This document shows positions 37,481-53,735 of a DNA stretch of 64,000 nt, piece after piece (position 1 is the first letter of the stretch; every line of letters starts with the position of its first letter). Both the position numbers and the translations under genes were made by a program. The notes beneath the pieces are model-generated. The model worked only from the letters and a program-made list of their open reading frames with translations. It was not told the DNA's origin and searched no databases. This DNA is from an uncultured Gammaproteobacteria bacterium (GTDB lineage: Bacteria > Patescibacteriota > Patescibacteriia > SG8-24): NCBI GenBank assembly GCA_964491475.1, contig CAZBFO010000003.1, forward strand, positions 8,766-72,765. Direction: 5' to 3'.

Positions 37481-37924
37481 ATGTCCACGTTGGCCGAAAA
37501 CAAGAAAGCCCGTTTCGAATACGAAATCCTCGAGCCGTTCGAGGCCGGCTTGATGCTGCTCGGCCACGAGGTGAAGTCGGTCCGTGCGGGCCGGATGGCA
37601 CTGGTAGGTTCGTATGTCACCATTTCGCGCGGCGCCCTTTGGCTGGTCGGCGCGCAAATACAGCGCTACCCGCAGGCGGGACCGCTGCCTGATTACGATC
37701 CCCAGCGCACCCGCAAACTCCTGCTGCACAAGCGCGAAATCCAAAAATTGGCCGGAAAAATGGAGCAGAAAGGATTGACTTTGGTCCCTCTTTCTGTCTA
37801 TACTAAGGGGTCGAAAATCAAGTTGTCCTTCGGATTGGCCCGCGGCAGGAAGCAGTTCGAGAAGAAGGACAAGCTCAAGAAGCGCGACCTGGACCGCGAC
37901 ATCCGGCGCACCCTCAAAGGATAG
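37481..37924 (+). CDS. smpB: SsrA-binding protein SmpB
   Basis: 147 aa; ..FEYEILE..EAG..L.G.EVKS.R.G...L..SY and a basic C-terminal tail. Confidence 0.9.
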   Translation: MSTLAENKKARFEYEILEPFEAGLMLLGHEVKSVRAGRMALVGSYVTISRGALWLVGAQIQRYPQAGPLPDYDPQRTRKLLLHKREIQKLAGKMEQKGLTLVPLSVYTKGSKIKLSFGLARGRKQFEKKDKLKKRDLDRDIRRTLKG

Positions 37925-37945: not shown

Positions 37946-38337
37946 GGGGATGACCGGCATCGACGGGAGTTCGTTTCACGGCATGCCATCCGAGGTCGGC
38001 CGCATCCTCGTAAATCCGCGGTCACCGAACAAGTGCAAACTTGCTCTCGCGCGCGAAGTCGGCCCTGGCTAACGCCTTTGCCCCTTCGTTCGTTCCGGCT
38101 TTCGCTTAAGCGTTAAAGCCCATCCGTTCCGCTGACGTCAGATAAGCGGAGTCCGGGTGTCATTCATCTGGCAGAGCAGTCGCGCCGCACCGACGCGCCC
38201 GCCGAAATTGCATCGGCGCTCGTGGCAGGGGATTTCGTCCGCTTTCCACCCCCGCCAGACCACCAAACGGACTACGATCGTAGAAGTGCCGAGGGATACC
38301 TCACCAGACGGGAGTTCGACTCTCCCCATCTCCACCA
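37946..38337 (+). ncRNA. ssrA: tmRNA (SsrA), one-piece
   Basis: 5' GGGGAUGACCGGCAUCGACGGG and 3' GGGAGUUCGACUCUCCCCAUCUCCACCA form a tRNA-Ala-like acceptor stem with a G3-U wobble; conserved GCAUGCC, GAGG and CCUCGUAAA; resume codon GCA at 38035; tag ORF ends at TAA 38107-38109. Confidence 0.8.
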
Positions 38338-39235: not shown

Positions 39236-39739
39236 ATGCAAAGCGCCCAGCTACAACATGACGAGTTCATGAAAGCGTACGATCTCTACGCCGACGCCAT
39301 TTTTCGTCATTGTTACTTTCGGGTGTATGACCGCGAGAAGGCCCGGGAAATGATGCAGGACGCGTTCATGAAGACCTGGGAGTACCTTTCCAAAGGAAAG
39401 GAAATCGATAACCTCCGGGCATTCCTTTATCGCGTGGCCAACAACATGGTCATCGACCACAGCCGCAAGAAGAAGGAGTCTTCGCTCGATGCGCTGATGG
39501 AAGAAGGGTTCGAACCTGCCGTCAACGACAAGACGACCCTGGCGGCGGAGGCCGGACAGATGATCGCGCTGCTGGACCGGCTCGACGTGAAGTACCGCGA
39601 CGCCGTCCGCATGCGGTATCTCGACGACCTTTCGCCTAAGGAAATCGCTCATGCATTGGGAGAGACGGAAAACGTCATCTCCGTGCGCATTCACAGGGGC
39701 ATTGCCCAACTGCGCGCCTTGATGGCGCAAACCGCCTGA
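39236..39739 (+). CDS. ECF-type RNA polymerase sigma factor (sigma-70 family)
   Basis: 167 aa; region 2 (..AFMKTWEYL..) and region 4 HTH (RMRYLDDLSPKEIAHALGETENVISVRIHRG). Confidence 0.85.
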   Translation: MQSAQLQHDEFMKAYDLYADAIFRHCYFRVYDREKAREMMQDAFMKTWEYLSKGKEIDNLRAFLYRVANNMVIDHSRKKKESSLDALMEEGFEPAVNDKTTLAAEAGQMIALLDRLDVKYRDAVRMRYLDDLSPKEIAHALGETENVISVRIHRGIAQLRALMAQTA

Positions 39740-39747
39740 TATCGCCT

Positions 39748-40998
39748 ATGGAAGACCTGCTCAACAACCTGAAGGCCCATGCCAAGAACGTGGCGCTGAC
39801 GGCCGGGGAGAAATCCGCCGGCCGTGAGGCCTTGCGCTCTTTCATGGCGCTGACGCCGAACCGTCTTTCCCAGGCCAAAGCGTCGAAACCGAAACGCTTC
39901 GCCTTCCTGCGGCTCTCGCATGCGGGTCGCGCGGCCGGAGTGTTCGCCGCCTCCTTTGCCCTGCTGCTTTCTGCTGGCGGGATTTCCTATGCCGCCGAAG
40001 GCGCGGTGCCCGGCGACACGCTGTATCCGGTGAAGGTCTCGTTCAGCGAGCCGATCCGCGCAGCAGTCGCCGTCTCCGAAAAGGACCGTGCCGAATGGTC
40101 GGCAGAGCGTGCCAGCCGCCGCCTGGCCGAGGCGGAGGTGCTGGCTCAGCGGGGCAAGCTCGAGGCGGAAATGCGAGCCTCGCTTGATGCCGACTTCCAG
40201 CGCTTTTCCGAAGGCGCCGAACTTCACTTGGCGAAGGTCAGGGAGGAAGATGACGCCGACGCCGCCGATGTCAGCGCTCACATCGAGGGTACGCTCCGCG
40301 CGCACAGCCAGATCATGGCCGCGTTGGCCGAGAATCGCCGGGAGCGGCGGAAGGCCGCCAAGCTCGACGACCGTGCGGAGGGCGGCGATGCCGGCGACAA
40401 CGGCGACGATGAGGAACACCAGGTTGCCGTCCTTGCCGCTTCGGTCGACCAGCAGGTGAGCGTGACGATTAAGGAAAACGATTCTACCGAGACGCGAGCC
40501 TCTTCCGGCGGTTCCGTCAAGGCCGCGGGATTCGCCCGGGGCAGGCATGATGCCGCCGTACGCAAGATTGCCGAAGTCCGTTCCTGGCTCGCCGCCAAGT
40601 CGGGTTCGTTCACGGCCGACTCGCGCACGCAGGCCGATGCGCGACTGACCGCCGCGGATTCCTCCGTGGCCGCCGGTGACGCGGCCCTTGCCGCCGGCAA
40701 GAATCGCGAGGCCTTTGCCGCTTACGCCAAGGCGCAGCGGCTGGCGCAGGAAGCCAAACTCATCGTTCGCGCCAGCAACGACTTGGGAGTGCAGGTGCGT
40801 TTCAAGGACTCGTCCGAGGACGACACCGATCGCGAAGGCGACGCGGACAAGCGGAACGGTGACGGGAATGACCGTGGCGGCTTGGACCTCAACGCGGACG
40901 CGGGCGTCCATCTCGACGGCCTGCTCGGCGGCCATGACCGCGGCAGTTCCGACGAGAACCGCCGACGGCATGGTTCTCGCGATGGAAGCGACAACTAG
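39748..40998 (+). CDS. DUF5667-like putative anti-sigma factor (TM anchor, helical Ala/Glu-rich extracytoplasmic domain)
   Basis: 416 aa; begins 9 nt after the sigma gene; TM helix after ~60 aa; PGDTLYPVKVSFSE motif typical of DUF5667; Asp/Gly/Arg-rich C-terminus. Confidence 0.65.
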   Translation: MEDLLNNLKAHAKNVALTAGEKSAGREALRSFMALTPNRLSQAKASKPKRFAFLRLSHAGRAAGVFAASFALLLSAGGISYAAEGAVPGDTLYPVKVSFSEPIRAAVAVSEKDRAEWSAERASRRLAEAEVLAQRGKLEAEMRASLDADFQRFSEGAELHLAKVREEDDADAADVSAHIEGTLRAHSQIMAALAENRRERRKAAKLDDRAEGGDAGDNGDDEEHQVAVLAASVDQQVSVTIKENDSTETRASSGGSVKAAGFARGRHDAAVRKIAEVRSWLAAKSGSFTADSRTQADARLTAADSSVAAGDAALAAGKNREAFAAYAKAQRLAQEAKLIVRASNDLGVQVRFKDSSEDDTDREGDADKRNGDGNDRGGLDLNADAGVHLDGLLGGHDRGSSDENRRRHGSRDGSDN

Positions 40999-41046: not shown

Positions 41047-43617
41047 TCAGCTTGCTGCGGTTCGCGGCTTGGCAGTGGCCCGCAACAACCATCGTTTGAC
41101 CAGTTCGCTGGCCAGGAAGTAGCCCCCGACAATGGCCAAGCCCATCAGCGCGTGTTTCGGTGCAGGCGACACGAAGTGGAAGATGGAGCGCCCCAGCGCC
41201 GAGAAGGGAATGGCGATGGCGGTCAGCGCCGCCACGACCGACATGCCGGCCAGCGGCCAGGAGGGAGGCGCGGCCTTCCAGAAACGGCCGGCGGTGCGCA
41301 GCGAGAACACCAGCGCGATTTCGGTCAGCACGCTGACGATGAACCACGATGACTGCAGGATGGCTTCGCCCTCGCCTCGGAATACCGCGAAGGTGGTGAA
41401 GTCGAAAAGGCTGCTGACGAGGCCGAGGATGGTGGTGTAGATGATGATGCTGCGCGCGTCGTACTTCTTCGGCTCCGCCAAGTCGGCCTTGTCGAGGCTG
41501 TCGGTGGCGATGGTCAGCATGGGGAAGTCGGAGAGCAGGTTCAGCAGCAGAATCTGCAACGGCAGCATCGGCAGGTAGTTCACGAACAGCGAGATGATCG
41601 CCACCGAATAGAAGTTGCCGAAGTTGGATGCCAGCGTGACCTTGATGTACTTGATGGTGTTGCTCGACGTGCGGCGGCCCTCCTCGATGCCGTCGAAGAT
41701 GACGTGCAGGTCGCGGTTGAGCAGGATGACGTCGGCGGATTCCTTGGCGATGTCCGAGGCGCCTTCGACCGCCAGTCCGACGTTGGCCATCTTGAGGCCG
41801 GGCGCGTCATTGAAGCCTTCGCCCAGGAAGCCGACGGTCTTCTTTTCCTGCAGCAGCCCCAGCACCATGAACTTCTGCCGCGGGTTCATTCGGGCGAAGA
41901 CGTGCCTGGCATGCACTGCGGCGTGCCGTTCGTCGTCGCTCATGGCCTCGAGTTCGGCGCCGGTGACGACGTCGGTGGGGTCGCTGACGATGTTCAGCTT
42001 GCGGGCCACTGCGCCGGCCACGTCGCGCGAGTCGCCGGTGATGATCTTGATCTGGACGCCCAGCGCGGCGGCCTTCTTGGCGGCGCGGACGGCGCTCGGC
42101 TTGAGCGGGTCCACGAAGGAGATGAGGCCGAGCAGGCGCATGCCGTGCTCCTCGTCGCGCAGCGCCGCGTGCGCCGAAACGTCTTTGGCCGCCACGGCGA
42201 TCACGCGGTTGCCGGCGAGACCTTGCCGGACGATTTCCTTGCCGACGGACACGGCATTGGGGACGTTGGCACACAGGGGGAGCACGTCATCGGGGGAGCC
42301 GCGCATGATCATCCTGGCCCTGCCCCCCGGCAACGCGATCATGACGCTGTTGCGGCGGCGCACGGGATCGAAGGGCAGCTCGGCCAGCTTCACGACGTGC
42401 TTGGCTTCGCCCTGCAGCTTGGCGCCGGCGTGCCGCCACAGCGCGACGTCGAAGGCGTTGTTCTGCTGCTTGGCCTTTTCGCCGATGAAAGAGGAGGACA
42501 GCAGCCCGTGGCGGAAGCATTCGTCGGGGTCGGCCGAGAGCACGTCGGCCACCTCGAGCTCGTTCTTGGTGATGGTGCCGGTCTTGTCGGTGCACAGGAT
42601 TTCGATGCTGCCGAGGTCGTCGATGGCCGAAAGGCGTTTTACGACGACCTTGCGCTTGGCCAGTGTGACCGCGCCGCGCGACAGCGAAATAGTCGAGACT
42701 ACCGGCAATGCCTCGGGAATGATGCCGACGGTGAGCACGATGGAGAAGATCAGCAATTCCTGCAGGTGGCTCCAGCCCTTGAGCATCACATTCAGGAAGA
42801 ACATGAAGGCGATGGTGACCAGCACCAGCTTCATGATGAAGGTGCTGAAACCGGAAATTTCCCTTTCGAAGGCGCTGGTTCCCTTGGCGGCGGAGGCGAG
42901 GGCGGCGATGTCGCCGAGCGCGGCCGCCTTGCCCGTGGCGATGACCACCGCGGTCGCCTCGCCCGTCAGCATGGACGTGCCGGAGAAGCCGATGTTGGTG
43001 GCGGCGTAGTATTCTCCTGGCTCGACCGCCATCCGCAGGGCGTCCTTGTAGACGTCGTTTGATTCGCCGGTGAGCACCGACTCGTCCACGGACGCCGAAG
43101 TGACGGACAGGAAGCGGATGTCGGCAGGGATTTTGTCGCCGGCCTGCAGGTGCACGACGTCGCCCGGAACGAGTTCGGCGGAATCGACGATGACCGTCTT
43201 GCCGTCGCGGATGACATGCGTGGATTGCCGCCAGTACTTCATCAGCACTTCGACCGCCCGTTCGGCGCGGAATTCCTGGAAGAAGCCGAGGACGGTGTTC
43301 AGCACGGTGAACAGCACGATCATGCCTGCGTCAAAGCGCTCGCCGGTGGCGAAGGCCACGGCCGCCGCGACCGCCAGCAGGTAGATGAAAGGTGACGTGA
43401 GCTGGCGCACCAGCACGTCGAGCGCGGTCTTCCGCTTTCGGGCGATGTCGTTCGGTCCGAACTCCGCTTTTCGGGATCGCGCCTCGTCCGCGGAAAGGCC
43501 GGCGGCCGCATCCGAGCGCAGCGCTTTCAGCAGCTGGTCGGCAGGCGCGGCCGCCGCCTTCTTGAAGTCATGGTTTGCGAGCTGTTCGGTGGGTTGCATG
43601 GCCTCATCGTAGCACAA
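41047..43617 (-). CDS. cation-transporting P-type ATPase (P2/P3-like; Mg/Ca/H type)
   Basis: 856 aa; DKTGTITKN phosphorylation motif, TGES, TGDSRD, GEGFNDAPGLKMANVG (GDGxND) and 10 TM helices. Confidence 0.9.
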   Translation of the reverse strand: MCYDEAMQPTEQLANHDFKKAAAAPADQLLKALRSDAAAGLSADEARSRKAEFGPNDIARKRKTALDVLVRQLTSPFIYLLAVAAAVAFATGERFDAGMIVLFTVLNTVLGFFQEFRAERAVEVLMKYWRQSTHVIRDGKTVIVDSAELVPGDVVHLQAGDKIPADIRFLSVTSASVDESVLTGESNDVYKDALRMAVEPGEYYAATNIGFSGTSMLTGEATAVVIATGKAAALGDIAALASAAKGTSAFEREISGFSTFIMKLVLVTIAFMFFLNVMLKGWSHLQELLIFSIVLTVGIIPEALPVVSTISLSRGAVTLAKRKVVVKRLSAIDDLGSIEILCTDKTGTITKNELEVADVLSADPDECFRHGLLSSSFIGEKAKQQNNAFDVALWRHAGAKLQGEAKHVVKLAELPFDPVRRRNSVMIALPGGRARMIMRGSPDDVLPLCANVPNAVSVGKEIVRQGLAGNRVIAVAAKDVSAHAALRDEEHGMRLLGLISFVDPLKPSAVRAAKKAAALGVQIKIITGDSRDVAGAVARKLNIVSDPTDVVTGAELEAMSDDERHAAVHARHVFARMNPRQKFMVLGLLQEKKTVGFLGEGFNDAPGLKMANVGLAVEGASDIAKESADVILLNRDLHVIFDGIEEGRRTSSNTIKYIKVTLASNFGNFYSVAIISLFVNYLPMLPLQILLLNLLSDFPMLTIATDSLDKADLAEPKKYDARSIIIYTTILGLVSSLFDFTTFAVFRGEGEAILQSSWFIVSVLTEIALVFSLRTAGRFWKAAPPSWPLAGMSVVAALTAIAIPFSALGRSIFHFVSPAPKHALMGLAIVGGYFLASELVKRWLLRATAKPRTAAS

Positions 43618-43651
43618 AAGACCCTTTCACGACTCCGGGGGAGCTGGTATA

Positions 43652-44152
43652 GTGAAGGTGCATATGACGCCAAAAACTCCCAAGCGAAAGTCGCTTTTCG
43701 TGTTCAACGAGTTCACCGTCCTGTTCACGTTCGGCGCGGTCGGGTTGGTGATGCTGCTGTTCGGGGGAATCTTCGGCGTCGGCAATCTCGATTGGGATGA
43801 TTCGGCGAAAGAAATCGCCGCACCGGAAGCGATAGTGCAGACGGCGCCCACCACGGAGGAGTATCAGGCGGAGGCCCGCGGCGCGATGACGCCTTTCCTG
43901 CAGGAGGCCGTGAACGTGCGCAAGGAGAATTTCGCGTCGATGGATCCCTCGATGCTTGATTTGGCGACGAAAACCCAGGACCGGATGCTCGACGTGCGAG
44001 TGCCCAAGGATTCGCGTGACGCGCATCTCGCCTTCGTGCTCCTGCTTGACCAGTGGAAGCGCGCGCTCGGCGGCTCCAAGATCGATCAGAAGGCGGTGCT
44101 GAAGAAGACTTCGCAGCTGATCGCGGAGAACCCGTGGGTGCTGCAGCAGTAG
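43652..44152 (+). CDS. hypothetical single-pass membrane protein (first gene of a 4-gene operon)
   Basis: 166 aa; TM helix FTVLFTFGAVGLVMLLFGGIFGV. Confidence 0.4.
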   Translation: MKVHMTPKTPKRKSLFVFNEFTVLFTFGAVGLVMLLFGGIFGVGNLDWDDSAKEIAAPEAIVQTAPTTEEYQAEARGAMTPFLQEAVNVRKENFASMDPSMLDLATKTQDRMLDVRVPKDSRDAHLAFVLLLDQWKRALGGSKIDQKAVLKKTSQLIAENPWVLQQ

Positions 44153-44153
44153 T

Positions 44154-44876
44154 ATGACCAGAATCGAAAACGCCGCTTCGTTCCAGGACAAGGAGGCGCT
44201 CAAGAAGGAAATACGGCGCGAAATCAAGGTGGAAGAGCGGCGCAAGAAGCTGGTTGGCTGCGGCGGCTGCCTGCTGCTGGCGCTGGTCGTCATCTGCGTG
44301 CCCCTCTTTTTGGTCGCGCCGTTCTTCGCGAAGACAGGTTTCGTCGAGGTGCCGCTGCTGACTCGCGCGGTATACAGGCCGTCGGCTCCCATGCGGGATG
44401 TCGCGCCGTTCAGCGGCGAAACCTCCGATCAGGTGCTGGCGGTGCTTCCGCACAAGATCACCTACGACGTTGCGGCGGCGCAGCTGCGTCTGCCGATCAG
44501 CGAGCAGGAGTTCACCACCGTGATGCAGCGCGTCGCCACGATGAAGCCCAGCCAGCTGCCGTTCGCCGTGAGCCGGATGCAGATGGTCATCGAACCGAAC
44601 CAGGTCGAGGTCTTCGCCGTGTCTCCCCGGCATGGCCGGGACGTGACGGTGCGCATCCGCCTCGTTCCCCGTGTTCGCGACGGCCAGCTGGTCATTGAGT
44701 CGCCGCAAGTGCTTTTGGGCGGCGAAGCGGTGCCGCATTTCCTGGCCCAGCCCTTTTTCGATTACTTCGCGAAGAGCATGATGGACCAGCTTCGCGGTGC
44801 CATGGATTCCGTCGGCCGCCTGGTGGACATCAAGCTTTCGGAAGGCGCAATGACCTTCGTCTTTTTCAGACAATGA
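44154..44876 (+). CDS. hypothetical single-pass membrane protein
   Basis: 240 aa; start 1 nt after the previous stop; TM helix LLLALVVICVPLFLVAPFF. Confidence 0.45.
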   Translation: MTRIENAASFQDKEALKKEIRREIKVEERRKKLVGCGGCLLLALVVICVPLFLVAPFFAKTGFVEVPLLTRAVYRPSAPMRDVAPFSGETSDQVLAVLPHKITYDVAAAQLRLPISEQEFTTVMQRVATMKPSQLPFAVSRMQMVIEPNQVEVFAVSPRHGRDVTVRIRLVPRVRDGQLVIESPQVLLGGEAVPHFLAQPFFDYFAKSMMDQLRGAMDSVGRLVDIKLSEGAMTFVFFRQ

Positions 44877-44886
44877 CCTGACAACC

Positions 44887-45675
44887 ATGAAGAAGTTCTC
44901 CTCATCGGCCGTCGCCTGGGTGTCTGCTGCCATCGTGGTCGGGTCGTTTGTGACGCTCTCGCTCGTGCCGCGCCTTTCGGCATCGGCTGCCGCCGCGATG
45001 GTGCCGTGGGTCTGCGTGTTGGGTCCGGTCAGCATCGCGCTGACCACTTTCTTCACCAACCGGGACTCCGCCGTCTCCGCGGCGCTGCTCTCGTCGATCA
45101 CTCCCGCCATCCTGCTCGCCGGCGCGCTGGGCACCTTCATGACCGTCGAGGGTGACACCGCCAGGCTGCTGGTCGCCGCAACTACCATCGGCTTCAGCGT
45201 GCTGTTCCTGGCGTACTGGCACGGCATGGGCAGGGGGGACGTCCGTTTCAGCGCCGATGACTTTGCCCACCTGTCGTTCGCGCTGCACGTAGTCGCCATG
45301 TTCTTCGTGCTGGTCAGCGTCTTCGGCCTGTCCGACTTCCTGACGCTGCCTTTGCCCGCCGTGGCCGGCATCGCCGGTGCCATCACCTTGGTGACCGTGG
45401 CCGAAACCATGCGCCGCGCCGGCCTTCCGCGGCAGTCGATAGTCGCTTTCTCCGCGACCATGGCGCTCATCATGGCCGAGGCGACGGTGGCCTTGAGCGA
45501 ATTGCCGACCGGCAACCTGGTGGACGCGATGATGGGCGTCGTGGTATACGCTACCTGCCTGCATGCGGCTACGGCCATTCTCCAGCCTTCGCCCAGGCCT
45601 CCCGCGTTGCGCAGGCATTTCGCGCTTTCCTTCGCCATCGTCATCCTCGTGCTGTCCACCGCGCGGTGGGCCTGA
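44887..45675 (+). CDS. hypothetical polytopic membrane protein
   Basis: 262 aa; about 7 hydrophobic helices. Confidence 0.5.
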   Translation: MKKFSSSAVAWVSAAIVVGSFVTLSLVPRLSASAAAAMVPWVCVLGPVSIALTTFFTNRDSAVSAALLSSITPAILLAGALGTFMTVEGDTARLLVAATTIGFSVLFLAYWHGMGRGDVRFSADDFAHLSFALHVVAMFFVLVSVFGLSDFLTLPLPAVAGIAGAITLVTVAETMRRAGLPRQSIVAFSATMALIMAEATVALSELPTGNLVDAMMGVVVYATCLHAATAILQPSPRPPALRRHFALSFAIVILVLSTARWA

Positions 45676-46823
45676 ATGCTATGAACGAAAAAACATCCCA
45701 AAAAAGCGGATCATTTACGCAGACATTTTTGGTGACCACGGCGTTGGGCGTGGCGGCCGGCGTTGCCGGTGCCATGTTCATGCTGCCGTATGCCACGTCC
45801 GTGCTGGTGCAAAAGTCGGCCACCTCCTCCGTTTCGACTTCCGATTTGCCGCGACCTCGCGTCGCCAGTTCCGTCGCCGCCGGCACGTTGGCTCCGGCCG
45901 TTCGCGCTTCGGTTTCATTTGCGGCCGTCAAAACGACGTCGGGCATCGCCGGAAAGGCCTATGTGCCGGGGGACGCCATCGGCATGGGCGCCGTCGTCAC
46001 TTCCGACGGTTGGATGGCCACGGTGAGCGATTCGCCGCTTCTGAAGAACAGGAACTTGTCCGGCATTACCGCGCTTGTCGGCGGCCGGGCGTACAAGCTG
46101 ACCAGCATGGTCCGTGATGCCTATTCCGGCGTGACGTTCCTGAAGGCCGACGCGGACAATCTCCCGGTGACCGCGTTCGGCGCCACCGACGCCGTCGCGG
46201 CCGGCGATTCCGTGTTCGCGGCCGATTCCGCCGGGGGACTGCGCCGGCTCGAAGTGCTGGCCAATGACACGCTGCCGGCAATCAGCAGCGATGACCTGCT
46301 GCGCTCCTCGGAAAAAGTGCAGCGCCTGTTGCGCGTGACGGGCGGACTGATCGGCACCGGCGCGATGGTGCTGAACGGCAGGGGCGAGATCATCGGGCTG
46401 GCGGCAGGCGACGGGCGTTTCGGGTCCGTGGTGGTGCCGGTCGAGGCGTTCTCGGACATCATCGGCGCGGTGCTGCGCGGACAGCCGCTGCGGCGTCCGT
46501 ACTTGGGACTCAACTACGTCGATTTGTCCCTGATTTCCGGCCGTGACGGCGAGGGGCCGGCTCGCGGTGCCCTGGTTTCCGGTTCGTCCGACGGCAAGCA
46601 ACCGGCGGTCATCAGGGGCGGTCCTGCCGCTGCGGCAGGCATCAGGGCAGGGGATGTCATCGTGGCGATTGACGGCGAGCAGGTCTCCGGAAAGAACCCG
46701 TTGGCCGACGCGCTGATGCAATACCAGCCCGGCGATAAGCCGACGCTCTCCGTACAGCGCGGCAACGCCTCAACGACCATGGACGTGACGGTCACGCTGG
46801 GGGTCGCAAAGAATCTGCAATAA
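45666..46823 (+). CDS. HtrA/DegP-like trypsin-fold protein with C-terminal PDZ domain; catalytic His and Ser apparently absent
   Basis: 385 aa; overlaps the previous gene by 10 nt; N-terminal TM; trypsin-like beta-barrel alignable to DegP, with TVSDS in place of TNNHVV and GTGAMVL in place of GNSGGAL; PDZ region GIRAGDVIVAIDGEQV. Confidence 0.55.
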   Translation: MGLNAMNEKTSQKSGSFTQTFLVTTALGVAAGVAGAMFMLPYATSVLVQKSATSSVSTSDLPRPRVASSVAAGTLAPAVRASVSFAAVKTTSGIAGKAYVPGDAIGMGAVVTSDGWMATVSDSPLLKNRNLSGITALVGGRAYKLTSMVRDAYSGVTFLKADADNLPVTAFGATDAVAAGDSVFAADSAGGLRRLEVLANDTLPAISSDDLLRSSEKVQRLLRVTGGLIGTGAMVLNGRGEIIGLAAGDGRFGSVVVPVEAFSDIIGAVLRGQPLRRPYLGLNYVDLSLISGRDGEGPARGALVSGSSDGKQPAVIRGGPAAAAGIRAGDVIVAIDGEQVSGKNPLADALMQYQPGDKPTLSVQRGNASTTMDVTVTLGVAKNLQ

Positions 46824-46894
46824 ATAAGGGCGCGAGAGGGGTTCGGGATGCGTTCCTGCCCCTTTTTTGGTACACTGGAACCGACCTGGCACGA

Positions 46895-46923
46895 TTGACA
46901 AAACGCCCTTTTCGTGCTAGTTT
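46895..46923 (+). promoter_or_regulatory. sigma70-like promoter TTGACAAAACGCCCTTTTCGTGCTAGTTT
   Basis: -35 TTGACA 46895-46900, 17-nt spacer, extended -10 TGcTAGTTT 46915-46923. Confidence 0.5.
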
Positions 46924-46938
46924 GGCCGGTTGTCTTTC

Positions 46939-47583
46939 ATGACGCCTCCCATGCATTCCTACGACTCCCACTACCTGTACGTCCTCTCGCGAGGCTGGAA
47001 GAAAATTCTGGTCTTCGCTTTGGGTATCGCTCTCGCCGGCGCCGGTTTGAGCCTGCTGTTCCCGTTGCGCTACAGCTCGTCGATGCGCATGCTCATCATT
47101 CAGAAGCAGCTTTCGGCGACCGATCCGTACACTGCCATCAAGGCTTCGGAACGCATTTCGGACAACTTGTCGCAGATCATGTACACCACCTCGTTTTTCG
47201 ACAAGGTGATGGGCTCCAACTTCACCATCGACAAGTCGGTCTTCAGCACCGACGAGATGAAGAAGCGCAAGCAGTGGAGCCAGATGATCAGCACCCAGGT
47301 GGTGCGCGACTCCGGCATGCTCATCGTGACGGTCTACCACACCGACCCCAAGCAGGCCGAGCAGATTTCCCGCGCCATCGCCTTCATCCTTTCGACCGAC
47401 GGCGCCGATTACATCGGCGGAGGCAACCTGGACATCCGCTTGGTGGACGATCCGTTGATTTCCAAGTACCCGGTCAAGCCAAACATCCCCGCCAATGCCG
47501 TTCTCGGCTTTATGCTGGGCATCATCATCGGCACCGGCTACGTGCTGTCGGATTCGCGTCGACATTCCATTTTTGGAGCTTAA
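46939..47583 (+). CDS. Wzz/Cap-type polysaccharide co-polymerase (chain-length determinant) family protein
   Basis: Two terminal TM helices flanking a periplasmic domain; Pro-rich PVKPNIPANAVLGFMLGIIIG motif before TM2. Start set at ATG 46939 because the track's TTG at 46930 coincides with the predicted TSS. Confidence 0.6.
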   Translation: MTPPMHSYDSHYLYVLSRGWKKILVFALGIALAGAGLSLLFPLRYSSSMRMLIIQKQLSATDPYTAIKASERISDNLSQIMYTTSFFDKVMGSNFTIDKSVFSTDEMKKRKQWSQMISTQVVRDSGMLIVTVYHTDPKQAEQISRAIAFILSTDGADYIGGGNLDIRLVDDPLISKYPVKPNIPANAVLGFMLGIIIGTGYVLSDSRRHSIFGA

Positions 47584-47773: not shown

Positions 47774-47991
47774 CTGTGTTAATTGATAACTGGAGCATTG
47801 AGACCGTTTGGCGAACAGCGCGACATCTCCTCCTCGTCACGCTGGACGTCAAACGGTCCCAGGGCTTCACGGTTCTGGAAAATGTTCGCTGACAATCGAA
47901 TGTGCACGGTTACAAGGCATTGGAAAATGCTTCGGCCGCCACCACTCGTGCCCGGAAGGGCCAACCATCCCTTTTGGGAAGGAGCAAGGTC

Positions 47992-48942
47992 ATGAAGAAT
48001 ATCGTTGTTACGTGTCTCACGGTTCTCGCTCTCACGATGGTGTCCAGCGTCGCTCTCGCGGAGGGCTCGCAGGTCAAGCTCCCGGCCGACGTGGCCGCGT
48101 GCGTCAACGCCTGCACGGGCTCAAGCCCTTCGGGCGCGGGCTCGTGCTGCGAAGACAGCGACCGGCGTCTCAAAGTCCTCGAGGCCGACCTTGCCCAGCG
48201 CAGGGCTTGGCTCGAGGCTGCTCGGAAGAATGTCCGGCCGCAGGTCGATAGGGTCAAGCAGCTTCAGGATCAACTGAAGTCGCTCAACGAGAGCGTCGAC
48301 AAGAACGCAGGCGAACTCGCCCGCGTCGCCGGCGAACTCGCCGTCCAGACCAAGAAGCTCGAAGATTTGACCAAAGACGTCAAAAATTTGGCAGAAAAGG
48401 TCTCGGGCCTCGAGCGCGATCTCGCCGACCTGAAGAAGACGGTCGACGGTCACGATGCGACGCTCGCCGATCACAGCAAGCGCCTCGAGAAGCTCGAGCT
48501 GGCGCCGCCCTCCATCAGGGTCGGCTTCCACGCGGGCGTCCTCGGGCTGCATGCCTTCGGCAGCGGCACGGACTTCACGGCAGTGCCGATTACTGCTAGC
48601 CTGACCTTCCCGATTTCGAAGCGCGTCACGGTGTTCACCGAGGCGGGCGCGACGTTGTCGGGAGACAGGTACGCGGTCGGCACCGTGCTTCACGGGGCCG
48701 CGCAGTACCACTTCGACCCGCACTGGTCGATCGACGGCGGCGTCACCAGCGTGTGGGCCGGTTTCAACAACCACCTGAAGGCCGCGCAAGCGTCCTTCCT
48801 GGCGGATGTGGGGCCAACCTACACGAATGGCGTCTTCATGGCGCGTGCCGGCCTCCTGGCCGGTCCGGCCTTCGAGCCAAGCCCGAAGGGAGCGTCTTTC
48901 GCTCTCGGCGGTACGCTTTCGCTCGGGGTCGTCTTGCCCTGA
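47992..48942 (+). CDS. hypothetical secreted coiled-coil protein with a C-terminal beta-rich domain
   Basis: Start at the MKNIVVT ATG with ggaaggagc RBS; signal peptide; CxxxC..CC; ~120-aa heptad-like region (LEADLAQRRAWLEAARK..LKKTVDG); Gly/aromatic-rich C-terminus. Confidence 0.5.
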   Translation: MKNIVVTCLTVLALTMVSSVALAEGSQVKLPADVAACVNACTGSSPSGAGSCCEDSDRRLKVLEADLAQRRAWLEAARKNVRPQVDRVKQLQDQLKSLNESVDKNAGELARVAGELAVQTKKLEDLTKDVKNLAEKVSGLERDLADLKKTVDGHDATLADHSKRLEKLELAPPSIRVGFHAGVLGLHAFGSGTDFTAVPITASLTFPISKRVTVFTEAGATLSGDRYAVGTVLHGAAQYHFDPHWSIDGGVTSVWAGFNNHLKAAQASFLADVGPTYTNGVFMARAGLLAGPAFEPSPKGASFALGGTLSLGVVLP

Positions 48943-49019
48943 GCGTGAGCTGGGGCGGTCCGAAATTGTTCGGACCGCCCTTCACCAAAAGTTCAACGCA
49001 TCAGGATTAGGAGCCAGTC

Positions 49020-49697
49020 ATGAAAACGTTCATCAAGTTCGCGAGCTTGCTCTCGTTCATCGTCATCTTTGCCGTCATCGGCGGCTGCGGCCTCCAGGAC
49101 GGCGAGTCCGACCCGGGATCCGGCGGTCCGCCTCCGAACAGCGGAGGCAACGGCGGTAACGGCGGGAATGGCGGTAACGGCGGTAACGGCGGCAACGGCG
49201 GTTCCGCCACGACCAGCAATGGCGGGGCGAAGCCTACGAACAAGGCTTGTGCTGTCGTCGATCTGCCCTCACCGTTCCAGAGCATCAAGTCGTACGACTT
49301 GGACTTTAACAAGTTCTACGTCAGCGGCTCAAGCACCGGCTTCGTGTGCGGCACTCTGCCGAACATGAAGTGGGACCAGTGCCAGGCTCTCGGCGACGAC
49401 AACGCTGATGCCTGGATCGGGATGACGATCGTGGACCCGAAGGCACTGCCGGACGGCACGTACGACTTCTCGTACAAGGACGCACGCGACGTGTTTGCAC
49501 AGTACGGCGCTCCTGCGCAGATTCTGTGCATGCCGCGCGACGGTGTCGCGTACCTTCAGTGCAATTGGGTCAACCAAGACGGCTCGACGACGGATCTCGG
49601 TCGCCAGGGCGAGTGCCACGTTCGCGTCAGTACGCATTCCGGCGTCATTTCGCCGGCAGGCAATGCTGTCGTGTTCTGGGACCGTCTGAACAAGTGA
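49020..49697 (+). CDS. lipoprotein with (GGN)n linker and Cys-containing C-terminal domain
   Basis: 225 aa; signal peptide plus lipobox-like VIGGC; SGGNGGNGGNGGNGGNGGNGG linker; C-terminal domain paralogous to the next gene (shared TYDFSY/TYSFTY and CNW). Confidence 0.55.
   Translation: MKTFIKFASLLSFIVIFAVIGGCGLQDGESDPGSGGPPPNSGGNGGNGGNGGNGGNGGNGGSATTSNGGAKPTNKACAVVDLPSPFQSIKSYDLDFNKFYVSGSSTGFVCGTLPNMKWDQCQALGDDNADAWIGMTIVDPKALPDGTYDFSYKDARDVFAQYGAPAQILCMPRDGVAYLQCNWVNQDGSTTDLGRQGECHVRVSTHSGVISPAGNAVVFWDRLNK
49143..49202 (+). repeat. hexanucleotide coding microsatellite (GGY AAY GGC)n
   Basis: Six consecutive ggcggtaac / ggcgggaat / ggcggcaac units encoding (GGN)6. Confidence 0.8.
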
Positions 49698-49735
49698 CGG
49701 GGTACGAAGGTCAGCCGAGATTCTTCGGCAGACAA

Positions 49736-49769
49736 GAAGGGGTCCAGCGCTTGCTGGGCCCCTCTTTTT
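49736..49769 (+). terminator. intrinsic terminator
   Basis: ggggtccagc-gctt-gctgggcccc hairpin followed by tcttttttat. Confidence 0.6.
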
Positions 49770-49806
49770 TATGCTTATTTTAGCATAAAAATAGTATATG
49801 GCATGG

Positions 49807-49835
49807 TTGACAAAATGGCTTTTTTGTGCTATGGT
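49807..49835 (+). promoter_or_regulatory. sigma70-like promoter TTGACAAAATGGCTTTTTTGTGCTATGGT
   Basis: -35 TTGACA 49807-49812, 17-nt spacer, extended -10 TGcTATGGT; AT-rich palindrome tatgcttattttagcata just upstream. Confidence 0.5.
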
Positions 49836-49919
49836 GATCAGTCCTCTAATACAAGATTTTGCGCCAACGGCCATTCGGGCTGAAGGTGTGGGGACACCAC
49901 GAATACGGGAGCTCATTCC

Positions 49920-50762
49920 ATGAAAAAGCATTTCGTTTTGGCACTGCTGTCTTCGGCGCTCATGCTCGTCGCTTGCGGCGTGCAGACCGGCGATGACGAG
50001 CTGTTCGCTCCGATGCCTCCCAATTCCGCCGCTTTCGGCGGAGTCGATGGCGGTCCGGCGGCCGACGCGGGCGCATCGCGCCCCGACGCCACGGCAGCTT
50101 CCTCCGACACCGGAGGAGGCAAGACCGACAGCGGTTCCTCGGAACCGAAGTCGGACGCGGGCGGCACGGTTCCGGACAGCGGCAGCGATGCCGCCGATTC
50201 CGGCAAACCGAAACCTGACGCATCGACCCCCGATTCCGGCGTCTCTGACGCTGGCGTCGCCGATGCGGCAACCGAAGCCGGCAGCGATGCCGGTGCCGAT
50301 TCCGGTCCGGCCGACGCTGGCGTGGTCGTTCCCGACAACGCCGATGTCGTCCGTTTGACCGCTGACCGCAAGACATTCCTGCTCTCGACTCGCTATATCT
50401 TCTCCGCCAAGTGCGGTGAGGTGCGCGGGCCGATGCCGGGCGTCGGCTGGTCCGCCGGTCCGCAGTCCTGCGACACCGATAGTGACGGCTACTTCGCCTA
50501 CACGCCGATCGCGGGGACGGTGGGGACCTACTCCTTCACTTACCTCGATCCCAACAAGCCGGCGGACGGCTGGGCCCTCTACGGCAATATCGACCTCCTT
50601 CGGGCGATGTCGCCGACGGCACGGTCGTTCGTCGAGTGCAATTGGTGGGATGCGTCCACGCAGAAGACCGTTTCGGTCGGCAACCCGAGCTGCAGCCTGA
50701 AGGCCACCTTCGGTGCCAACGGACTGCTCGCGGGTGCGGGGAACATGGCGAACCTCCAGTAG
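49920..50762 (+). CDS. lipoprotein with Asp/Ser/Gly/Ala-rich low-complexity region and C-terminal domain paralogous to the preceding lipoprotein
   Basis: 280 aa; classic lipobox LMLVAC; gggag RBS; ~90-aa acidic repeat-like region; shared C-terminal Cys pattern. Confidence 0.55.
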   Translation: MKKHFVLALLSSALMLVACGVQTGDDELFAPMPPNSAAFGGVDGGPAADAGASRPDATAASSDTGGGKTDSGSSEPKSDAGGTVPDSGSDAADSGKPKPDASTPDSGVSDAGVADAATEAGSDAGADSGPADAGVVVPDNADVVRLTADRKTFLLSTRYIFSAKCGEVRGPMPGVGWSAGPQSCDTDSDGYFAYTPIAGTVGTYSFTYLDPNKPADGWALYGNIDLLRAMSPTARSFVECNWWDASTQKTVSVGNPSCSLKATFGANGLLAGAGNMANLQ

Positions 50763-50785
50763 GTTCGACGGAAGTTCCATTCTAA

Positions 50786-50819
50786 AAAAGGGCGGCTGAC
50801 GCTTGTCGGCCGCCCTTTT
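50786..50819. terminator. bidirectional hairpin terminator
   Basis: aaaaagggcggc..(loop)..gccgccctttt. Confidence 0.55.
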
Positions 50820-50833
50820 ACGCTGCCCAAACG

Positions 50834-50842
50834 TGCTACAAT
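50834..50842 (+). promoter_or_regulatory. extended -10 (TGCTACAAT) 9 nt upstream of ATG 50851 (leaderless candidate)
   Basis: TACAAT at 50837-50842 with TG at 50834-50835. Confidence 0.4.
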
Positions 50843-50850
50843 GGGCCTGT

Positions 50851-52395
50851 ATGCACCACGGTGAACCGGTGGCCGACATCATGGCCAAAGAAACCACCAA
50901 GGCCGTACGCAGCCCCTATGGGCCCGTTTTGGGCACTCTTTTGACCATAACGGTGCTGCTGGGCATCATCGTTTCCCCGTGGAAGGCGGTGGCGCTGGCC
51001 GTAACCCTGGCGGTAGTGGTGGTTACCATGGCTAGGCCGCATTGGGCGCTGTTTTTCCTGGCGGTCTACACGCCCTTCGAACCTTTCCTTCTCAAATTCG
51101 TCCCGGACGAACTGTACGTCTACGCGCGTTATTTTACCGAGGGCCTGGTGTACCTGCTGTTGGCGGCCGTGCTCGTGCGCATCTTCGCGCGCGAAAAGAA
51201 AATGGTGGCCACGCCCATCGACCTGCCGTTCGTTTTTTTCCTGCTGGTCGCCCTCACTTCGTTGGTCGTGAATTTCGTGCCGCCGTTCATCGGCATCCTC
51301 GGTTTGCGGCAGATCATCCGCTTCATCCTGCTGTTCTTCGCGACCGTCTACCTTAATCCCGAGGAACAGTTCATTCGCAAGGTGACTGCGGCGATGTTCT
51401 GCGTGGTGGCGTTCGAGGGCGTGCTCGGATTGGCGCAGGCTTTCGTGGGTGCGCCGCTCGACCAGTTCCTGATTCCCAGCGAGCGTCACTTTTACGAAAG
51501 CATCCAGCTGACCAGCGGCACCGCCCAGTCGTGGTCGCCAGGCACGCGCGTCTTCGCCACGCTCGGGCGGTATGACCAATTGGGCACGTTCCTGTGCTTC
51601 TTCATCGTGCTGGCCATCGGCCTGTGGTACGTGCACGGGCGCAAGGAAGGCGGTCGCAAGTTCATGCCGTTCGCCGTCGCCGCGCTGCCGGCCCTCCTGC
51701 TGACGCTTTCGCGCGCCTCGTGGTTCGGCCTGCTCATCGCGCTGTTCTGCATCGGCGGCATGCTGATGCGCGACTGGCGGGTGCGGTTCGCCTACGCGGG
51801 TGCGATTTTCCTGGCGGTGGGCTATCTGGCCGTTTCCGGCATCACCGTCAAATACCTCACGGATTATCCCGAACAGACGCCGATAGAGCGCCTGTTCGAA
51901 TCGTTCTCGTACGAGCGGTGGCGCGGCGAATATTACGGCCTCGGTCGGCTGTACTGGATCGTGCAGACGCCGGCAGTGGTGGTGCGCTCGTCGCCGCTGG
52001 TGGGCGTGGGTCCCGGCCAATACGGTGGGGGAGCCGCCGCGGCGCTCGGCAACACCACGGTATACGAGCGCCTGAACCTGCCCTTCGGCGTCTACGGCAC
52101 GGACGGGTATATTGACAACAACTGGTTCTCGCTGTGGGGCGAGACGGGAACGCTCGGCCTGGTGTTCTACCTGTGGATGTTCGTGGCGCTGTGGCGAATG
52201 TCGCTGACCGTCTGGCGCGAGGCCAAGGACAAGAACGTGCGCGGCCTGGCGCTGGGTTTTGCCGGCTGCCTGCTGGCGTTCGGTTTCCAGGCGTTCCTGG
52301 CGACCTACCTCGAAGTGCGCACCATCGCGCTGTATTTTTGGATGTACGCCGCCTTCGTGTACGTCCTCGGGCGCAGGAACAAGGTGTTCAGCTAA
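50851..52395 (+). CDS. O-antigen ligase / Wzy_C family polytopic membrane protein
   Basis: About 12 TM helices; periplasmic loop LLLTLSRASWFGLLIALF typical of the O-antigen-ligase (Wzy_C) domain. Start at 50851 (MHHGEP) favoured over 50803 or 50881 from promoter position. Confidence 0.65.
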   Translation: MHHGEPVADIMAKETTKAVRSPYGPVLGTLLTITVLLGIIVSPWKAVALAVTLAVVVVTMARPHWALFFLAVYTPFEPFLLKFVPDELYVYARYFTEGLVYLLLAAVLVRIFAREKKMVATPIDLPFVFFLLVALTSLVVNFVPPFIGILGLRQIIRFILLFFATVYLNPEEQFIRKVTAAMFCVVAFEGVLGLAQAFVGAPLDQFLIPSERHFYESIQLTSGTAQSWSPGTRVFATLGRYDQLGTFLCFFIVLAIGLWYVHGRKEGGRKFMPFAVAALPALLLTLSRASWFGLLIALFCIGGMLMRDWRVRFAYAGAIFLAVGYLAVSGITVKYLTDYPEQTPIERLFESFSYERWRGEYYGLGRLYWIVQTPAVVVRSSPLVGVGPGQYGGGAAAALGNTTVYERLNLPFGVYGTDGYIDNNWFSLWGETGTLGLVFYLWMFVALWRMSLTVWREAKDKNVRGLALGFAGCLLAFGFQAFLATYLEVRTIALYFWMYAAFVYVLGRRNKVFS

Positions 52396-52401
52396 AAGCG
52401 C

Positions 52402-53658
52402 ATGAAAGTCGTCTTTGCCAACAAATACTATTTTCTGAAGGGCGGCGCGGAGCGCTATCTTTTCGATTTGAAGGCGCTGCTGGAGCGCCACGGCAACGAG
52501 GTCATACCTTTCGCCATGCGGGACGGGCGCAACCTCAAGACGCCGTGGGAAAAATATTTCGTCAGCGCCGTGCGGACCGAGCGCGTGCGTTTCTCGCTTG
52601 ACGGTCTCAAGACCGCCGGCCGGATGCTGTACTCGTTCGAGGCCAAGCGCAAGTTCGCGAGGCTGCTCGATGCCGCCAAGCCGCAGCTGCTGCACGTGCA
52701 CAACATCTACCACCAGATTTCGCCGTCCATTCTTCCCGAAGCGCGCAAGCGGGGAATCCCCGTGGTGATGACCGCGCACGATTACAAGCTGGTCGCGCCC
52801 AACTACTCGCTGTTTCACGACGGCGCCATCTGCGAGCGTACCAAGCCCGACAAGTACTGGCAGGCATACAGGCACCGTTGCATCAAAGGCTCTGCCGCCG
52901 CCAGCGCGCTCGCGGCGATGGAGATGACCCTGCACAAGGCGCTCGGCCTGTACCGAGACAACGTCGACAAGATCATCGCGCCCAGCCGCTTCATGCAGGC
53001 GCTGCTGGCCGAATACGGCATTCCCGCCCGAAAGATCGTGCATATCCCGCATCCGATCGACGCCTCGGCATGGCGACCGGCTTTCGGAGGGGGGAAGTAT
53101 GCGCTCTACGTGGGGCGCTTGTCCGAGGAGAAGGGCGTCGACGTTTTGATCCGCGCCGCGGCCATGCGAAAAGACATCCCCGTGCATATCGTGGGCACCG
53201 GCCCGGACGAGGCGCGATTAAAAGAGCTGGCCAAGAAGCTCGATGCCGCTAACGTCATCTTCCGCGGCTTCATGTCCGGCGGCGACCTCCGATCCGAATA
53301 TGCCGGAGCAAGTTTCCTGGTCGTTCCTTCGGTCTGGTACGAAGTCTTCGGCCTGATCGTTCTCGAAGCCTACGCTGCAGGCAAACCGGTGGTGGCCTCG
53401 CAAATCGGCGGCCTCGGCGAACTGGTCCGCGACGGCGAAACCGGCTTCCTCTGCTCCGCCGGCGACTCCGAAGACTTTGCCGACAAGATGGGCGCATTGT
53501 GGGACGCCCCGTTAATAGCCGACGACATGGGCGTCGCCGGACGCGCTTGGGTGGAAAGCGACTTCACCCCGGATGAACACCTGAAAAGGATTCTCGACGT
53601 ATATGCGGGCGCGCTGGCGTCCGCAAGCGCGCCCCTTGCGCGGCCCCGCTCCGGGTGA
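52402..53658 (+). CDS. glycosyltransferase family 4 (GT-B, RfaB-like)
   Basis: 418 aa; EVFGLIVLEAYAAGKPVVASQIGGLGELVRDGETGFL, the E-x7-E GT4 C-terminal motif. Confidence 0.85.
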   Translation: MKVVFANKYYFLKGGAERYLFDLKALLERHGNEVIPFAMRDGRNLKTPWEKYFVSAVRTERVRFSLDGLKTAGRMLYSFEAKRKFARLLDAAKPQLLHVHNIYHQISPSILPEARKRGIPVVMTAHDYKLVAPNYSLFHDGAICERTKPDKYWQAYRHRCIKGSAAASALAAMEMTLHKALGLYRDNVDKIIAPSRFMQALLAEYGIPARKIVHIPHPIDASAWRPAFGGGKYALYVGRLSEEKGVDVLIRAAAMRKDIPVHIVGTGPDEARLKELAKKLDAANVIFRGFMSGGDLRSEYAGASFLVVPSVWYEVFGLIVLEAYAAGKPVVASQIGGLGELVRDGETGFLCSAGDSEDFADKMGALWDAPLIADDMGVAGRAWVESDFTPDEHLKRILDVYAGALASASAPLARPRSG

Positions 53659-53695
53659 CGCTCTCGCTAAAAAAAATCTCGGCTCCGAGCAATCA

Positions 53696-53722
53696 AAAAC
53701 GAGACCCCTTCGGTCTCGTTTT
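53696..53722. terminator. bidirectional intrinsic terminator between two convergent GT4 genes
   Basis: aaaaacgagacc-ccttc-ggtctcgttttt. Confidence 0.6.
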
Positions 53723-53735
53723 GGCATGTGATCGG

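Follow-up and report, generated by a model that had tools for sequence, protein, structure and literature searches.

The S210A variant of Escherichia coli DegP retains chaperone activity. HtrA-family domains that have lost catalysis have been described in two other settings. MamO of magnetotactic bacteria is a non-catalytic, repurposed HtrA-family pseudoprotease; the duplication of MamE/MamO followed by degeneration has been documented three times, and the polytopic TauE-like domain of MamO is needed to activate MamE (PMC4794232). In plants, the second protease domain of DEG7 has lost its triad and is kept for oligomerisation (PMC3194040). The present analysis concerns an HtrA homologue encoded in a 64,000-nucleotide stretch (hereafter the window; positions 8,766 to 72,765 of contig CAZBFO010000003.1) of a bacterium that GTDB places in the Patescibacteriota. 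It is the last of four genes on the + strand, named here gene 1 to gene 4, the next gene downstream being gene 5. The product of gene 4 lacks the Ser-His-Asp triad, and the gene stands directly behind gene 3, which encodes a polytopic protein assigned to the family DUF5656. These two genes appear to form a conserved, previously undescribed module across the ultra-small Patescibacteria (candidate phyla radiation, CPR), and we consider it rather probable that gene 4 encodes a functional pseudoprotease, the PDZ ligand-binding subunit of a DUF5656-centred membrane complex in the envelope of these bacteria. The gene and its parts, numbered by position in the window, are as follows.

45681 to 46823, + strand: gene 4, HtrA homologue without catalytic triad, 380 amino acids (profile, alignment and AlphaFold)
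45729 to 45806, + strand: N-terminal membrane anchor of gene 4, about residues 17-42, with a GxxxG motif (G23, G27), from hydropathy; helix 12-46 in the AlphaFold model
45972 to 46475, + strand: trypsin/HtrA-fold domain of gene 4, about residues 98-265, triad-less
46029 to 46031, + strand: codon of D117, equivalent to the catalytic His
46128 to 46130, + strand: codon of G150, equivalent to the catalytic Asp
46356 to 46358, + strand: codon of T226, equivalent to the catalytic Ser
46494 to 46805, + strand: PDZ domain of gene 4, about residues 272-375, with the carboxylate-binding loop R-P-Y-L-G-L (Pfam)

An earlier note on this DNA, made by eye from the sequence, had likened the protein to DegP along its length, and this resemblance is well supported. 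Searches with phmmer match residues 103-379 to DegP and DegQ chains of the PDB (best E 2.4e-13). An AlphaFold model built from 15 orthologues has a pLDDT (predicted local distance difference test) of 73, with 80-90 in the protease and PDZ regions, and Foldseek matches it over both domains to HtrA, MucD, AlgW, DegS and DegP (E 1.5e-17 to 1e-14, probability 1.0). Both methods place a chymotrypsin-like two-beta-barrel protease domain in the protein. The PDZ domain is recognized by PDZ_2 (E 1.4e-12, 48.1 bits) and PDZ_6 (E 4.3e-11, 42.8 bits), both with a gathering score of 27, and its loop lines up in the phmmer alignments with RGYLGV and RGWLGV of solved HtrAs. The Pfam Trypsin_2 match is sub-threshold, at 21.7 bits against a gathering score of 27.6, and the NCBIfam models of HtrA, DegS and DegQ span the whole protein at 46-66 bits against cut-offs above 400. 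For instance, TIGR02037 gives 66.3 bits (cut-off 416.2) and NF041521 gives 64.4 bits (cut-off 450), so that both cut-offs are failed.

The catalytic residues are gone. The protein contains no histidine at all, so that no alignment can place a catalytic His in it. In HMMER and MAFFT L-INS-i alignments, the positions of the catalytic His, Asp and Ser are taken by D117, G150 and T226, respectively, and none of the HtrA motifs TNxHV, D[IVL]A and GNSGG is found. The loss of His and Ser that the earlier note had proposed therefore stands, with one correction: its register, GTGAMVL against GNSGGAL, was off by one, and IGTGAM is what lies opposite GNSGGP. The same note was mistaken in holding that the Asp had been kept. 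The catalytic Asp, that is, the second D of DxxxD[IVL]A, corresponds to G150 in 'RDAYSGVTFLK', and the Asp that had been seen is D146, the first of the motif, which is non-catalytic and equally conserved in active HtrAs. T226 itself is not conserved even in close orthologues, where V, A, P or S is found. Judged by its sequence, then, the protein should be unable to carry out Ser-His-Asp catalysis, all three residues of the triad being absent. Since the defining catalytic feature of HtrA is missing and the curated thresholds are failed, the label of serine endopeptidase (MEROPS S1C) should not be applied to gene 4, either in classification or in annotation.

This loss is shared by a whole family. 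Among the 5.8 billion proteins searched, 15 orthologues came up that share 38-79% identity with gene 4, one carrying the label Candidatus Parcubacteria, and a locus scan with one genome per GTDB species gave 63 loci, nearly all from metagenome-assembled genomes (MAGs) of Patescibacteria/CPR. The lineages represented are Uhr-, Buchanan-, Moran-, Kuenen-, Yanofsky- and Torokbacteria. Among 70 non-redundant HtrA homologues aligned from these loci, the H/D/S triad is complete in 20, which show the textbook motifs, and absent from 50. In the columns of TNxHVV, D[IL]A and GNSGGP the maximum residue frequency is 0.42 in the 50 triad-less proteins versus 0.9-1.0 in the 20 active CPR HtrAs. The scaffold of the triad-less group is kept (G103, TSDGW 107-111, D146, K155, NLP 160-162, G175, G227, G235 and P253), as are the residues of the PDZ domain (L275, G276, G296, SPA 314-316, G320, L321, D325 and I327). 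The conservation of both sets is 0.76-1.0 (for instance, 0.82 for L275 and 1.00 for G276 across the 50 proteins), and the PDZ domain is as conserved as in the active enzymes. The anchor follows the same pattern: G23 and G27 are kept at 0.80 and 0.90 in the triad-less homologues, versus 0.50 and 0.40 in the active HtrAs, and the GxxxG motif reaches 1.0 in the clade with all four genes, which is consistent with packing of the helix against a membrane partner.

The open reading frame (ORF) is intact and full-length in more than 50 species-level genomes. The ratio of nonsynonymous to synonymous substitution rates (dN/dS, Nei-Gojobori) is 0.165 against an orthologue of 73% identity and 0.34 against one of 51%, values that are rough because dS is about 1-1.3, near saturation. 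By these comparisons, gene 4 appears to be under purifying selection despite being non-catalytic, and is not a case of gene decay.

Other degenerate HtrA-like proteins have also been noticed. In locus L039 (4113-5375), an HtrA-like protein that follows DUF5656 has S/E/S in the triad columns (LTNKSIVP, E for Asp, GNSGGP kept); in the rough tree it stands beside the active clade, and it may be a protein caught partway through degeneration. P0025 and P0029, two proteins from other metagenomes labelled 'putative serine protease PepD', have Gly for His (TNVGVV) and Gly for Asp and keep the Ser (GASGAP), and they form a separate, independent, partially degenerate HtrA lineage. Many of the Patescibacteria-type loci (L009, L017, L020-L025 and others) carry the titles 'uncultured Gammaproteobacteria bacterium' or 'Candidatus Binatia', and the submitted organism labels of those MAGs look unreliable.

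The second component of the module is gene 3.

44887 to 45675, + strand: gene 3, 262-amino-acid polytopic protein with nine predicted helices, divergent DUF5656 (PF18900), assigned by an iterated hidden Markov model (HMM)

The DUF5656 model is matched by 13 of 28 members of the gene 3 family, and three relatives that were checked pass its gathering score of 23.3 (40.2, 31.3 and 30.3 bits). The window protein itself has no PF18900 match at E<=1 and is joined to the matching relatives by the iterated HMM. Word-indexed searches with gene 3 yielded just 5 and 7 matches because hydrophobic words saturate the candidate list. AlphaFold, working from a 7-sequence alignment, predicts a nine-helix bundle (pLDDT 77.5, predicted template modelling score 0.77). 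The conserved residues are P73, F139, E198, P207 and W261. Of these, E198 (nucleotides 45478-45480) lies in a predicted transmembrane helix, ahead of a conserved 'LP' (P207), and 84% of the 57 family members have it; this glutamate may be a functional residue that, for instance, couples ions or contacts a partner. A search of the accessible literature library returned no paper on DUF5656.

The neighbourhood was analysed both with iterated HMMs over all ORFs of the fetched loci and by unsupervised neighbourhood clustering, and the two approaches agree. In about 51 of the 54 non-duplicate loci, gene 3 is the immediate 5' neighbour of the HtrA-like gene, the anchor of this count being an HtrA-like gene preceded by gene 3. 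The gap between the two genes is 3-5 nucleotides in the window, L001 and L003. A leave-out HMM of gene 3 gave zero false positives among 3921 ORFs, with no other ORF at E<10. With the same model, DUF5656 is also found in front of catalytically intact HtrAs, in L045 (4.5e-39), L052 (8.7e-24) and L037 (4.9e-18), and more weakly in L031, L034 and L038 (about 1e-4 to 1e-3). Eight Moranbacteria-type loci encode, in this order, LepA, a DivIC-like protein, a PpiC/PrsA-like peptidyl-prolyl isomerase, an active HtrA, DUF5656 and the dead HtrA. In two loci (L047:12403-13302 and L048:5433-6332) a weak DUF5656-like paralogue of 299 amino acids is encoded about 2.7 kb downstream of the DUF5656/dead-HtrA pair.

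The full order of genes 1 to 4 is found in about 23-25 loci. In 29 loci gene 1 precedes DUF5656 or gene 2, and gene 1, DUF5656 and the dead HtrA occur together in 29. All HtrA-like genes in the loci with gene 1 and in the four-gene loci lack the triad. On this distribution DUF5656 and the HtrA-like gene form the invariant core, and genes 1 and 2 are lineage-restricted additions. The earlier note had treated the four genes as the unit, and genes 1-3 are indeed conserved syntenic partners; the core, however, comprises only two of the four, and gene 5 is conserved as well.

MamO appears, by analogy, to be the closest precedent for gene 4. Both have the HtrA/trypsin fold with a degenerate triad retained under selection, both are associated with a polytopic membrane module and an active HtrA paralogue, and both probably arose by duplication and loss. 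The differences are also clear. MamO keeps His and Asp, whereas gene 4 has lost all three triad residues. The function of MamO needs a surface di-His transition-metal site, which is impossible in a protein without any His. MamO carries a fused C-terminal TauE-like transporter, whereas gene 4 ends at the PDZ domain and its partner would be the product of a separate upstream gene, the DUF5656 gene, in which a search against Pfam found no TauE match. MamO has no PDZ domain, and the gene 4 family keeps it; the setting is the Patescibacteria envelope in one case and the magnetosome in the other. With DegS, DegP, DegQ, MucD and AlgW, gene 4 shares the two-barrel protease domain followed by PDZ and the RxYLG-type loop, with an N-terminal anchor as in DegS, but unlike these canonical HtrAs it has neither the Ser-His-Asp triad nor the GNSGG oxyanion motif. 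The second domain of DEG7 is similar as a triad-less HtrA domain kept in a non-catalytic role, although in DEG7 it shares a polypeptide with an active domain and gene 4 encodes a stand-alone membrane protein. The same literature library held nothing linking Patescibacteria with HtrA pseudoproteases.

The remaining genes of the cluster are the following.

43664 to 44152, + strand: gene 1, 162-amino-acid bitopic protein, N-terminus inside, transmembrane segment about 19-37, outside domain of about 125 amino acids (predicted topology)
44154 to 44876, + strand: gene 2, 240-amino-acid bitopic protein, N-terminus inside, basic 39-amino-acid tail, transmembrane segment 40-58, outside domain of 182 amino acids
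46939 to 47583, + strand: gene 5, 214-amino-acid Wzz/PCP-like protein (PCP, polysaccharide co-polymerase) with two transmembrane helices, a Wzz N-terminal region and GNVR (sub-threshold profiles)

The products of genes 1, 2 and 4 combine a short basic N-terminus, one transmembrane segment and a large C-terminal part, so that the bulk of each is predicted to be extracytoplasmic. The earlier note had called the three upstream membrane proteins unknown, which applies to gene 1 and no longer to gene 3, placed in DUF5656, nor quite to gene 2. Gene 1 has no match in Pfam, NCBIfam or the PDB, even with a family of 28 members, and no relatives are detectable outside the cluster; its conserved residues are Y71, V117-P118, H125-L126 and W162 in the numbering of a 166-amino-acid ORF. 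When PDB sequences were searched with profiles of genes 1, 2 and 3, no significant match came up.

Gene 2 belongs to a family with 345 representatives among 1.84 billion proteins, and its conserved residues are AKTG 59-62, P67, P79, E117, T121, Q143, E152 and G189. Among 91 relatives, 27 match DUF2140 (YpmS; best 1.4e-7) and 12 match LmeA (best 4e-6), all sub-threshold; one relative that was checked scores 20.2 bits against a gathering score of 34.3 (PF09911/PF11209). Every other family is matched by a single member only, and the window protein is itself unmatched. Gene 2 is possibly a distant DUF2140/LmeA-like protein and may bind lipids. With LmeA and DUF2140/YpmS it shares a membrane-anchored extracytoplasmic domain, the profile matches being weak and family-specific. 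LmeA is a phospholipid-binding protein of the mycobacterial envelope that supports a membrane glycosyltransferase and its lipoglycan product (PMC7643837), a role that fits the Wzz/Wzy/GT4 neighbourhood of gene 2.

In 29 loci gene 5 is the next gene after the HtrA-like gene and has the same orientation; no other gene of the set is as conserved (dN/dS 0.10-0.18). Residues 16-90 match Wzz (4.5e-4, 20.9 bits; gathering score 25.5), residues 168-206 match GNVR (1.4e-5, 25.3 bits; gathering score 27.7), and TIGR01006 is matched at 4.4e-8, also sub-threshold, the domain order and architecture being those of Wzz/PCP. A foreign origin of gene 5, for which low GC had been considered, was rejected: the GC content at its third codon positions (GC3) is 0.83, like that of its neighbours.

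The four ORFs of the earlier note (43652-44152, 44154-44876, 44887-45675 and 45666-46823) were all found on the + strand with a GC3 of 0.79-0.87, coding-like for this sequence of 62-65% GC. The gaps of 1 and 10 nucleotides between them also stand, but the overlap of 10 nucleotides between genes 3 and 4 exists only with the start GTG 45666. In all orthologues and in public gene calls gene 4 starts at ATG 45681 (380 amino acids), so that the two genes are separated by 5 nucleotides and do not overlap. Similarly, the public call of gene 1 begins at ATG 43664 (162 amino acids), and its ORF reaches back to GTG 43652. Two candidate signals flank the set.

43626 to 43653, + strand: promoter candidate, sigma-70-like (TTCACG, 16 nucleotides, TG-TATAGT), just 5' of gene 1 (consensus match only)
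46844 to 46868, + strand: terminator-like hairpin followed by a T run, 21 nucleotides past the gene 4 stop (pattern match only)

The first is the sole promoter-like site within 43300-47300, where shuffled sequences lead one to expect 0.4, while the region holds 7 terminator-like sites against 3.9 expected. The positions of the two candidates, one ahead of gene 1 and the other past gene 4, are consistent with a single transcription unit.

The wider neighbourhood includes the following genes.

37481 to 37924, + strand: smpB
37946 to 38337, + strand: transfer-messenger RNA (tmRNA) gene, 22 nucleotides after smpB (Rfam, 99.4 bits; tag peptide ANLLSRAKSALANAFAPSFVPAFA)
39236 to 39739, + strand: ECF-type (extracytoplasmic function) sigma factor gene
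39748 to 40998, + strand: DUF5667 protein of 416 amino acids with a transmembrane segment and a very Asp/Gly/Arg-rich tail
41047 to 43599, - strand: P-type ATPase, best match TIGR01524 (Mg-translocating type IIIB), 582.6 bits, just under the equivalog cut-off of 610.75
47902 to 48942, 49020 to 49697, 49920 to 50762, 50803 to 52395 and 52402 to 53658, + strand, and 53736 to 54941, - strand: surface-polymer genes downstream

The cluster is indeed divergent from the P-type ATPase gene, as had been noted, and the ATPase is of the Mg type. A functional tie between them was rejected, since the ATPase is there only in the closest relatives; in most clusters the side upstream of gene 1 holds an AI-2E transporter gene instead, and smpB is also found there, preceding the cluster in about 18 related loci. 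The ECF sigma and DUF5667 genes are probably a sigma/anti-sigma pair. They adjoin gene 1 in L010, L011 and L017, are separated from it in the window by the ATPase gene, and show this linkage only in the window's own clade (8-10 loci). The downstream set (47902-54941), kept in the window's clade, encodes a coiled-coil protein, two paralogous secreted proteins (one with a low-complexity linker of GGN x7), a Wzy_C/O-antigen-ligase-like membrane protein and two GT4 glycosyltransferases. As for a canonical HtrA, phmmer and tblastn searches of the 64-kb window with four triad-bearing CPR HtrAs found only gene 4, and none of the about 25 four-gene-type loci has an active HtrA within 10 kb of the cluster. 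A weak tblastn match at 53251-53676 (- strand) was discarded as spurious, being antisense to a GT4 glycosyltransferase gene. A canonical trypsin/PDZ protein, P0022, taken as a contig-mate of the orthologue P0010, was also rejected; it comes from an unrelated contig that is likewise 17,720 bp long.

On the reading that we prefer, gene 4 would be tethered by its N-terminal helix to the outer face of the cytoplasmic membrane, anchored like DegS, and would partner the nine-helix DUF5656 protein, probably through the GxxxG helix. In the window's lineage, this complex may be joined by gene 1, the LmeA-like gene 2 and the Wzz-like gene 5. Exported proteins would be caught by the PDZ domain at their C-termini or at hydrophobic stretches that lie exposed, and the dead protease domain would hold or present these clients, or relay its occupancy to DUF5656, without cutting. 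Its role would thus be that of a holdase or adaptor in the assembly of extracytoplasmic proteins and the envelope. The complex itself, the binding of peptides and the holdase or adaptor role are what we infer; the fold, the absence of the triad, the conservation across the family, the gene order and the topology were observed computationally. The suggestion of the earlier note, a pseudoprotease working with upstream membrane partners, is in the main well supported by the family-wide loss of the triad, the purifying selection and the synteny (genes 1-3 in about 25 species-level genomes, gene 3 in about 50), though it had missed the loss of the Asp and taken the unit to be four genes.

Several points weigh against this proposal. 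The gene 3 model has no counterpart among solved structures, and DUF5656 is an uncharacterised family. The neighbouring genes speak for two contexts: PrsA and HtrA in the Moranbacteria-type loci suggest extracytoplasmic folding and quality control, and the LmeA-like and Wzz-like proteins, with the Wzy_C/GT4 neighbours of the window's clade, suggest the assembly of surface glycans or lipids, so that they point two ways as to the class of substrate. The assignment of gene 2 to DUF2140/LmeA rests on sub-threshold matches, the hairpin between genes 4 and 5 means that gene 5 may be transcribed separately, and the neighbour-joining tree is too coarse for counting how often the triad was lost independently.

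Other explanations have to be considered. The dead HtrA might regulate an active HtrA encoded elsewhere, in mixed oligomers or with DUF5656, as MamO does with MamE, and so turn on proteolysis or direct it to its targets. An active HtrA, DUF5656 and the dead HtrA stand in a row or within 5 kb in the eight Moranbacteria-type loci, and active HtrAs have DUF5656 in front of them in L045, L052 and L037, with weaker matches in L031, L034 and L038; the presence of DUF5656 before both active and dead HtrAs suggests duplication followed by degeneration, as with MamE/MamO. However, no active HtrA was found within 10 kb in the four-gene-type loci, nor in the window. We regard this explanation as unlikely, though worth keeping in mind, and it overlaps the preferred reading instead of opposing it. 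A quite improbable alternative takes gene 4 as a non-cutting, DegS-like stress sensor that relays occupancy of its PDZ domain by mislocalised envelope proteins to the ECF sigma/DUF5667 pair. Its architecture of N-terminal anchor, protease fold and single PDZ domain is that of DegS, and the pair is encoded upstream in the window and directly beside gene 1 in L010, L011 and L017. Nonetheless, the linkage is confined to the 8-10 loci of the window's clade, most clusters having the AI-2E transporter gene at that place, and in the window itself the divergent ATPase gene separates the pair from the cluster. Moreover, the triad for catalytic cleavage of an anti-sigma factor is absent, and we know of no mechanism for a non-cleaving site-1 sensor.

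It is very improbable that gene 4 is a hydrolase with an unconventional catalytic set, formed, for example, by T226, or by the conserved S108, S209 or S210, with K155, E211 or D146. In its favour, T226 stands where the nucleophile would be, like the Thr of MamO, and T107, S108, W111 and RSSE 208-211 are invariant in the 15 close orthologues. Yet T226 varies among orthologues, the GNSGG oxyanion-hole motif is destroyed and a general base is absent, while active HtrAs conserve D146, K155 and E211 just as well, which marks these residues as scaffold and not as a new active site. The Thr of MamO, for its part, is dispensable, and MamO is inactive (PMC4794232). Finally, gene 4 could be seen as a decaying, functionless relic of an HtrA, as all catalytic residues are lost and the Pfam Trypsin_2 and NCBIfam HtrA scores fall under their thresholds. 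This view appears effectively refuted by the conservation data: more than 50 CPR organisms, whose genomes are very small, carry the gene at full length and in frame, its dN/dS is 0.17-0.34, the PDZ domain and the scaffold are conserved as in active HtrAs, and the synteny is kept.

The Patescibacteria account for a large part of bacterial diversity and have tiny genomes, and little is known about the biology of their envelope. That a gene coupled to DUF5656 persists in more than 50 species-level genomes in spite of this reduction points to a conserved piece of envelope biology. DUF5656 gains with it a first functional handle, as the partner of both active and dead HtrA-family proteins. For the HtrA family, this would be the second broad bacterial case, after MamO, of the scaffold being repurposed non-proteolytically, here with complete loss of the triad and with the PDZ domain retained; the public labels 'serine protease Do' and 'S1-C subfamily serine protease' carried by some members overstate the proteolytic capacity of these organisms. 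A wider idea, which must be counted as doubtful for now, is that DUF5656 and its often dead HtrA-like PDZ protein constitute a Patescibacteria-wide, lineage-defining envelope machine. In it, the dead protease would be the ligand-gated regulatory subunit of an unrecognised class of membrane transporter or assembly factor, with the LmeA-like and Wzz-like partners coupling the state of exported proteins to the assembly of lipids or glycans at the surface. If true, this might bear on how these episymbionts build or remodel their surface.

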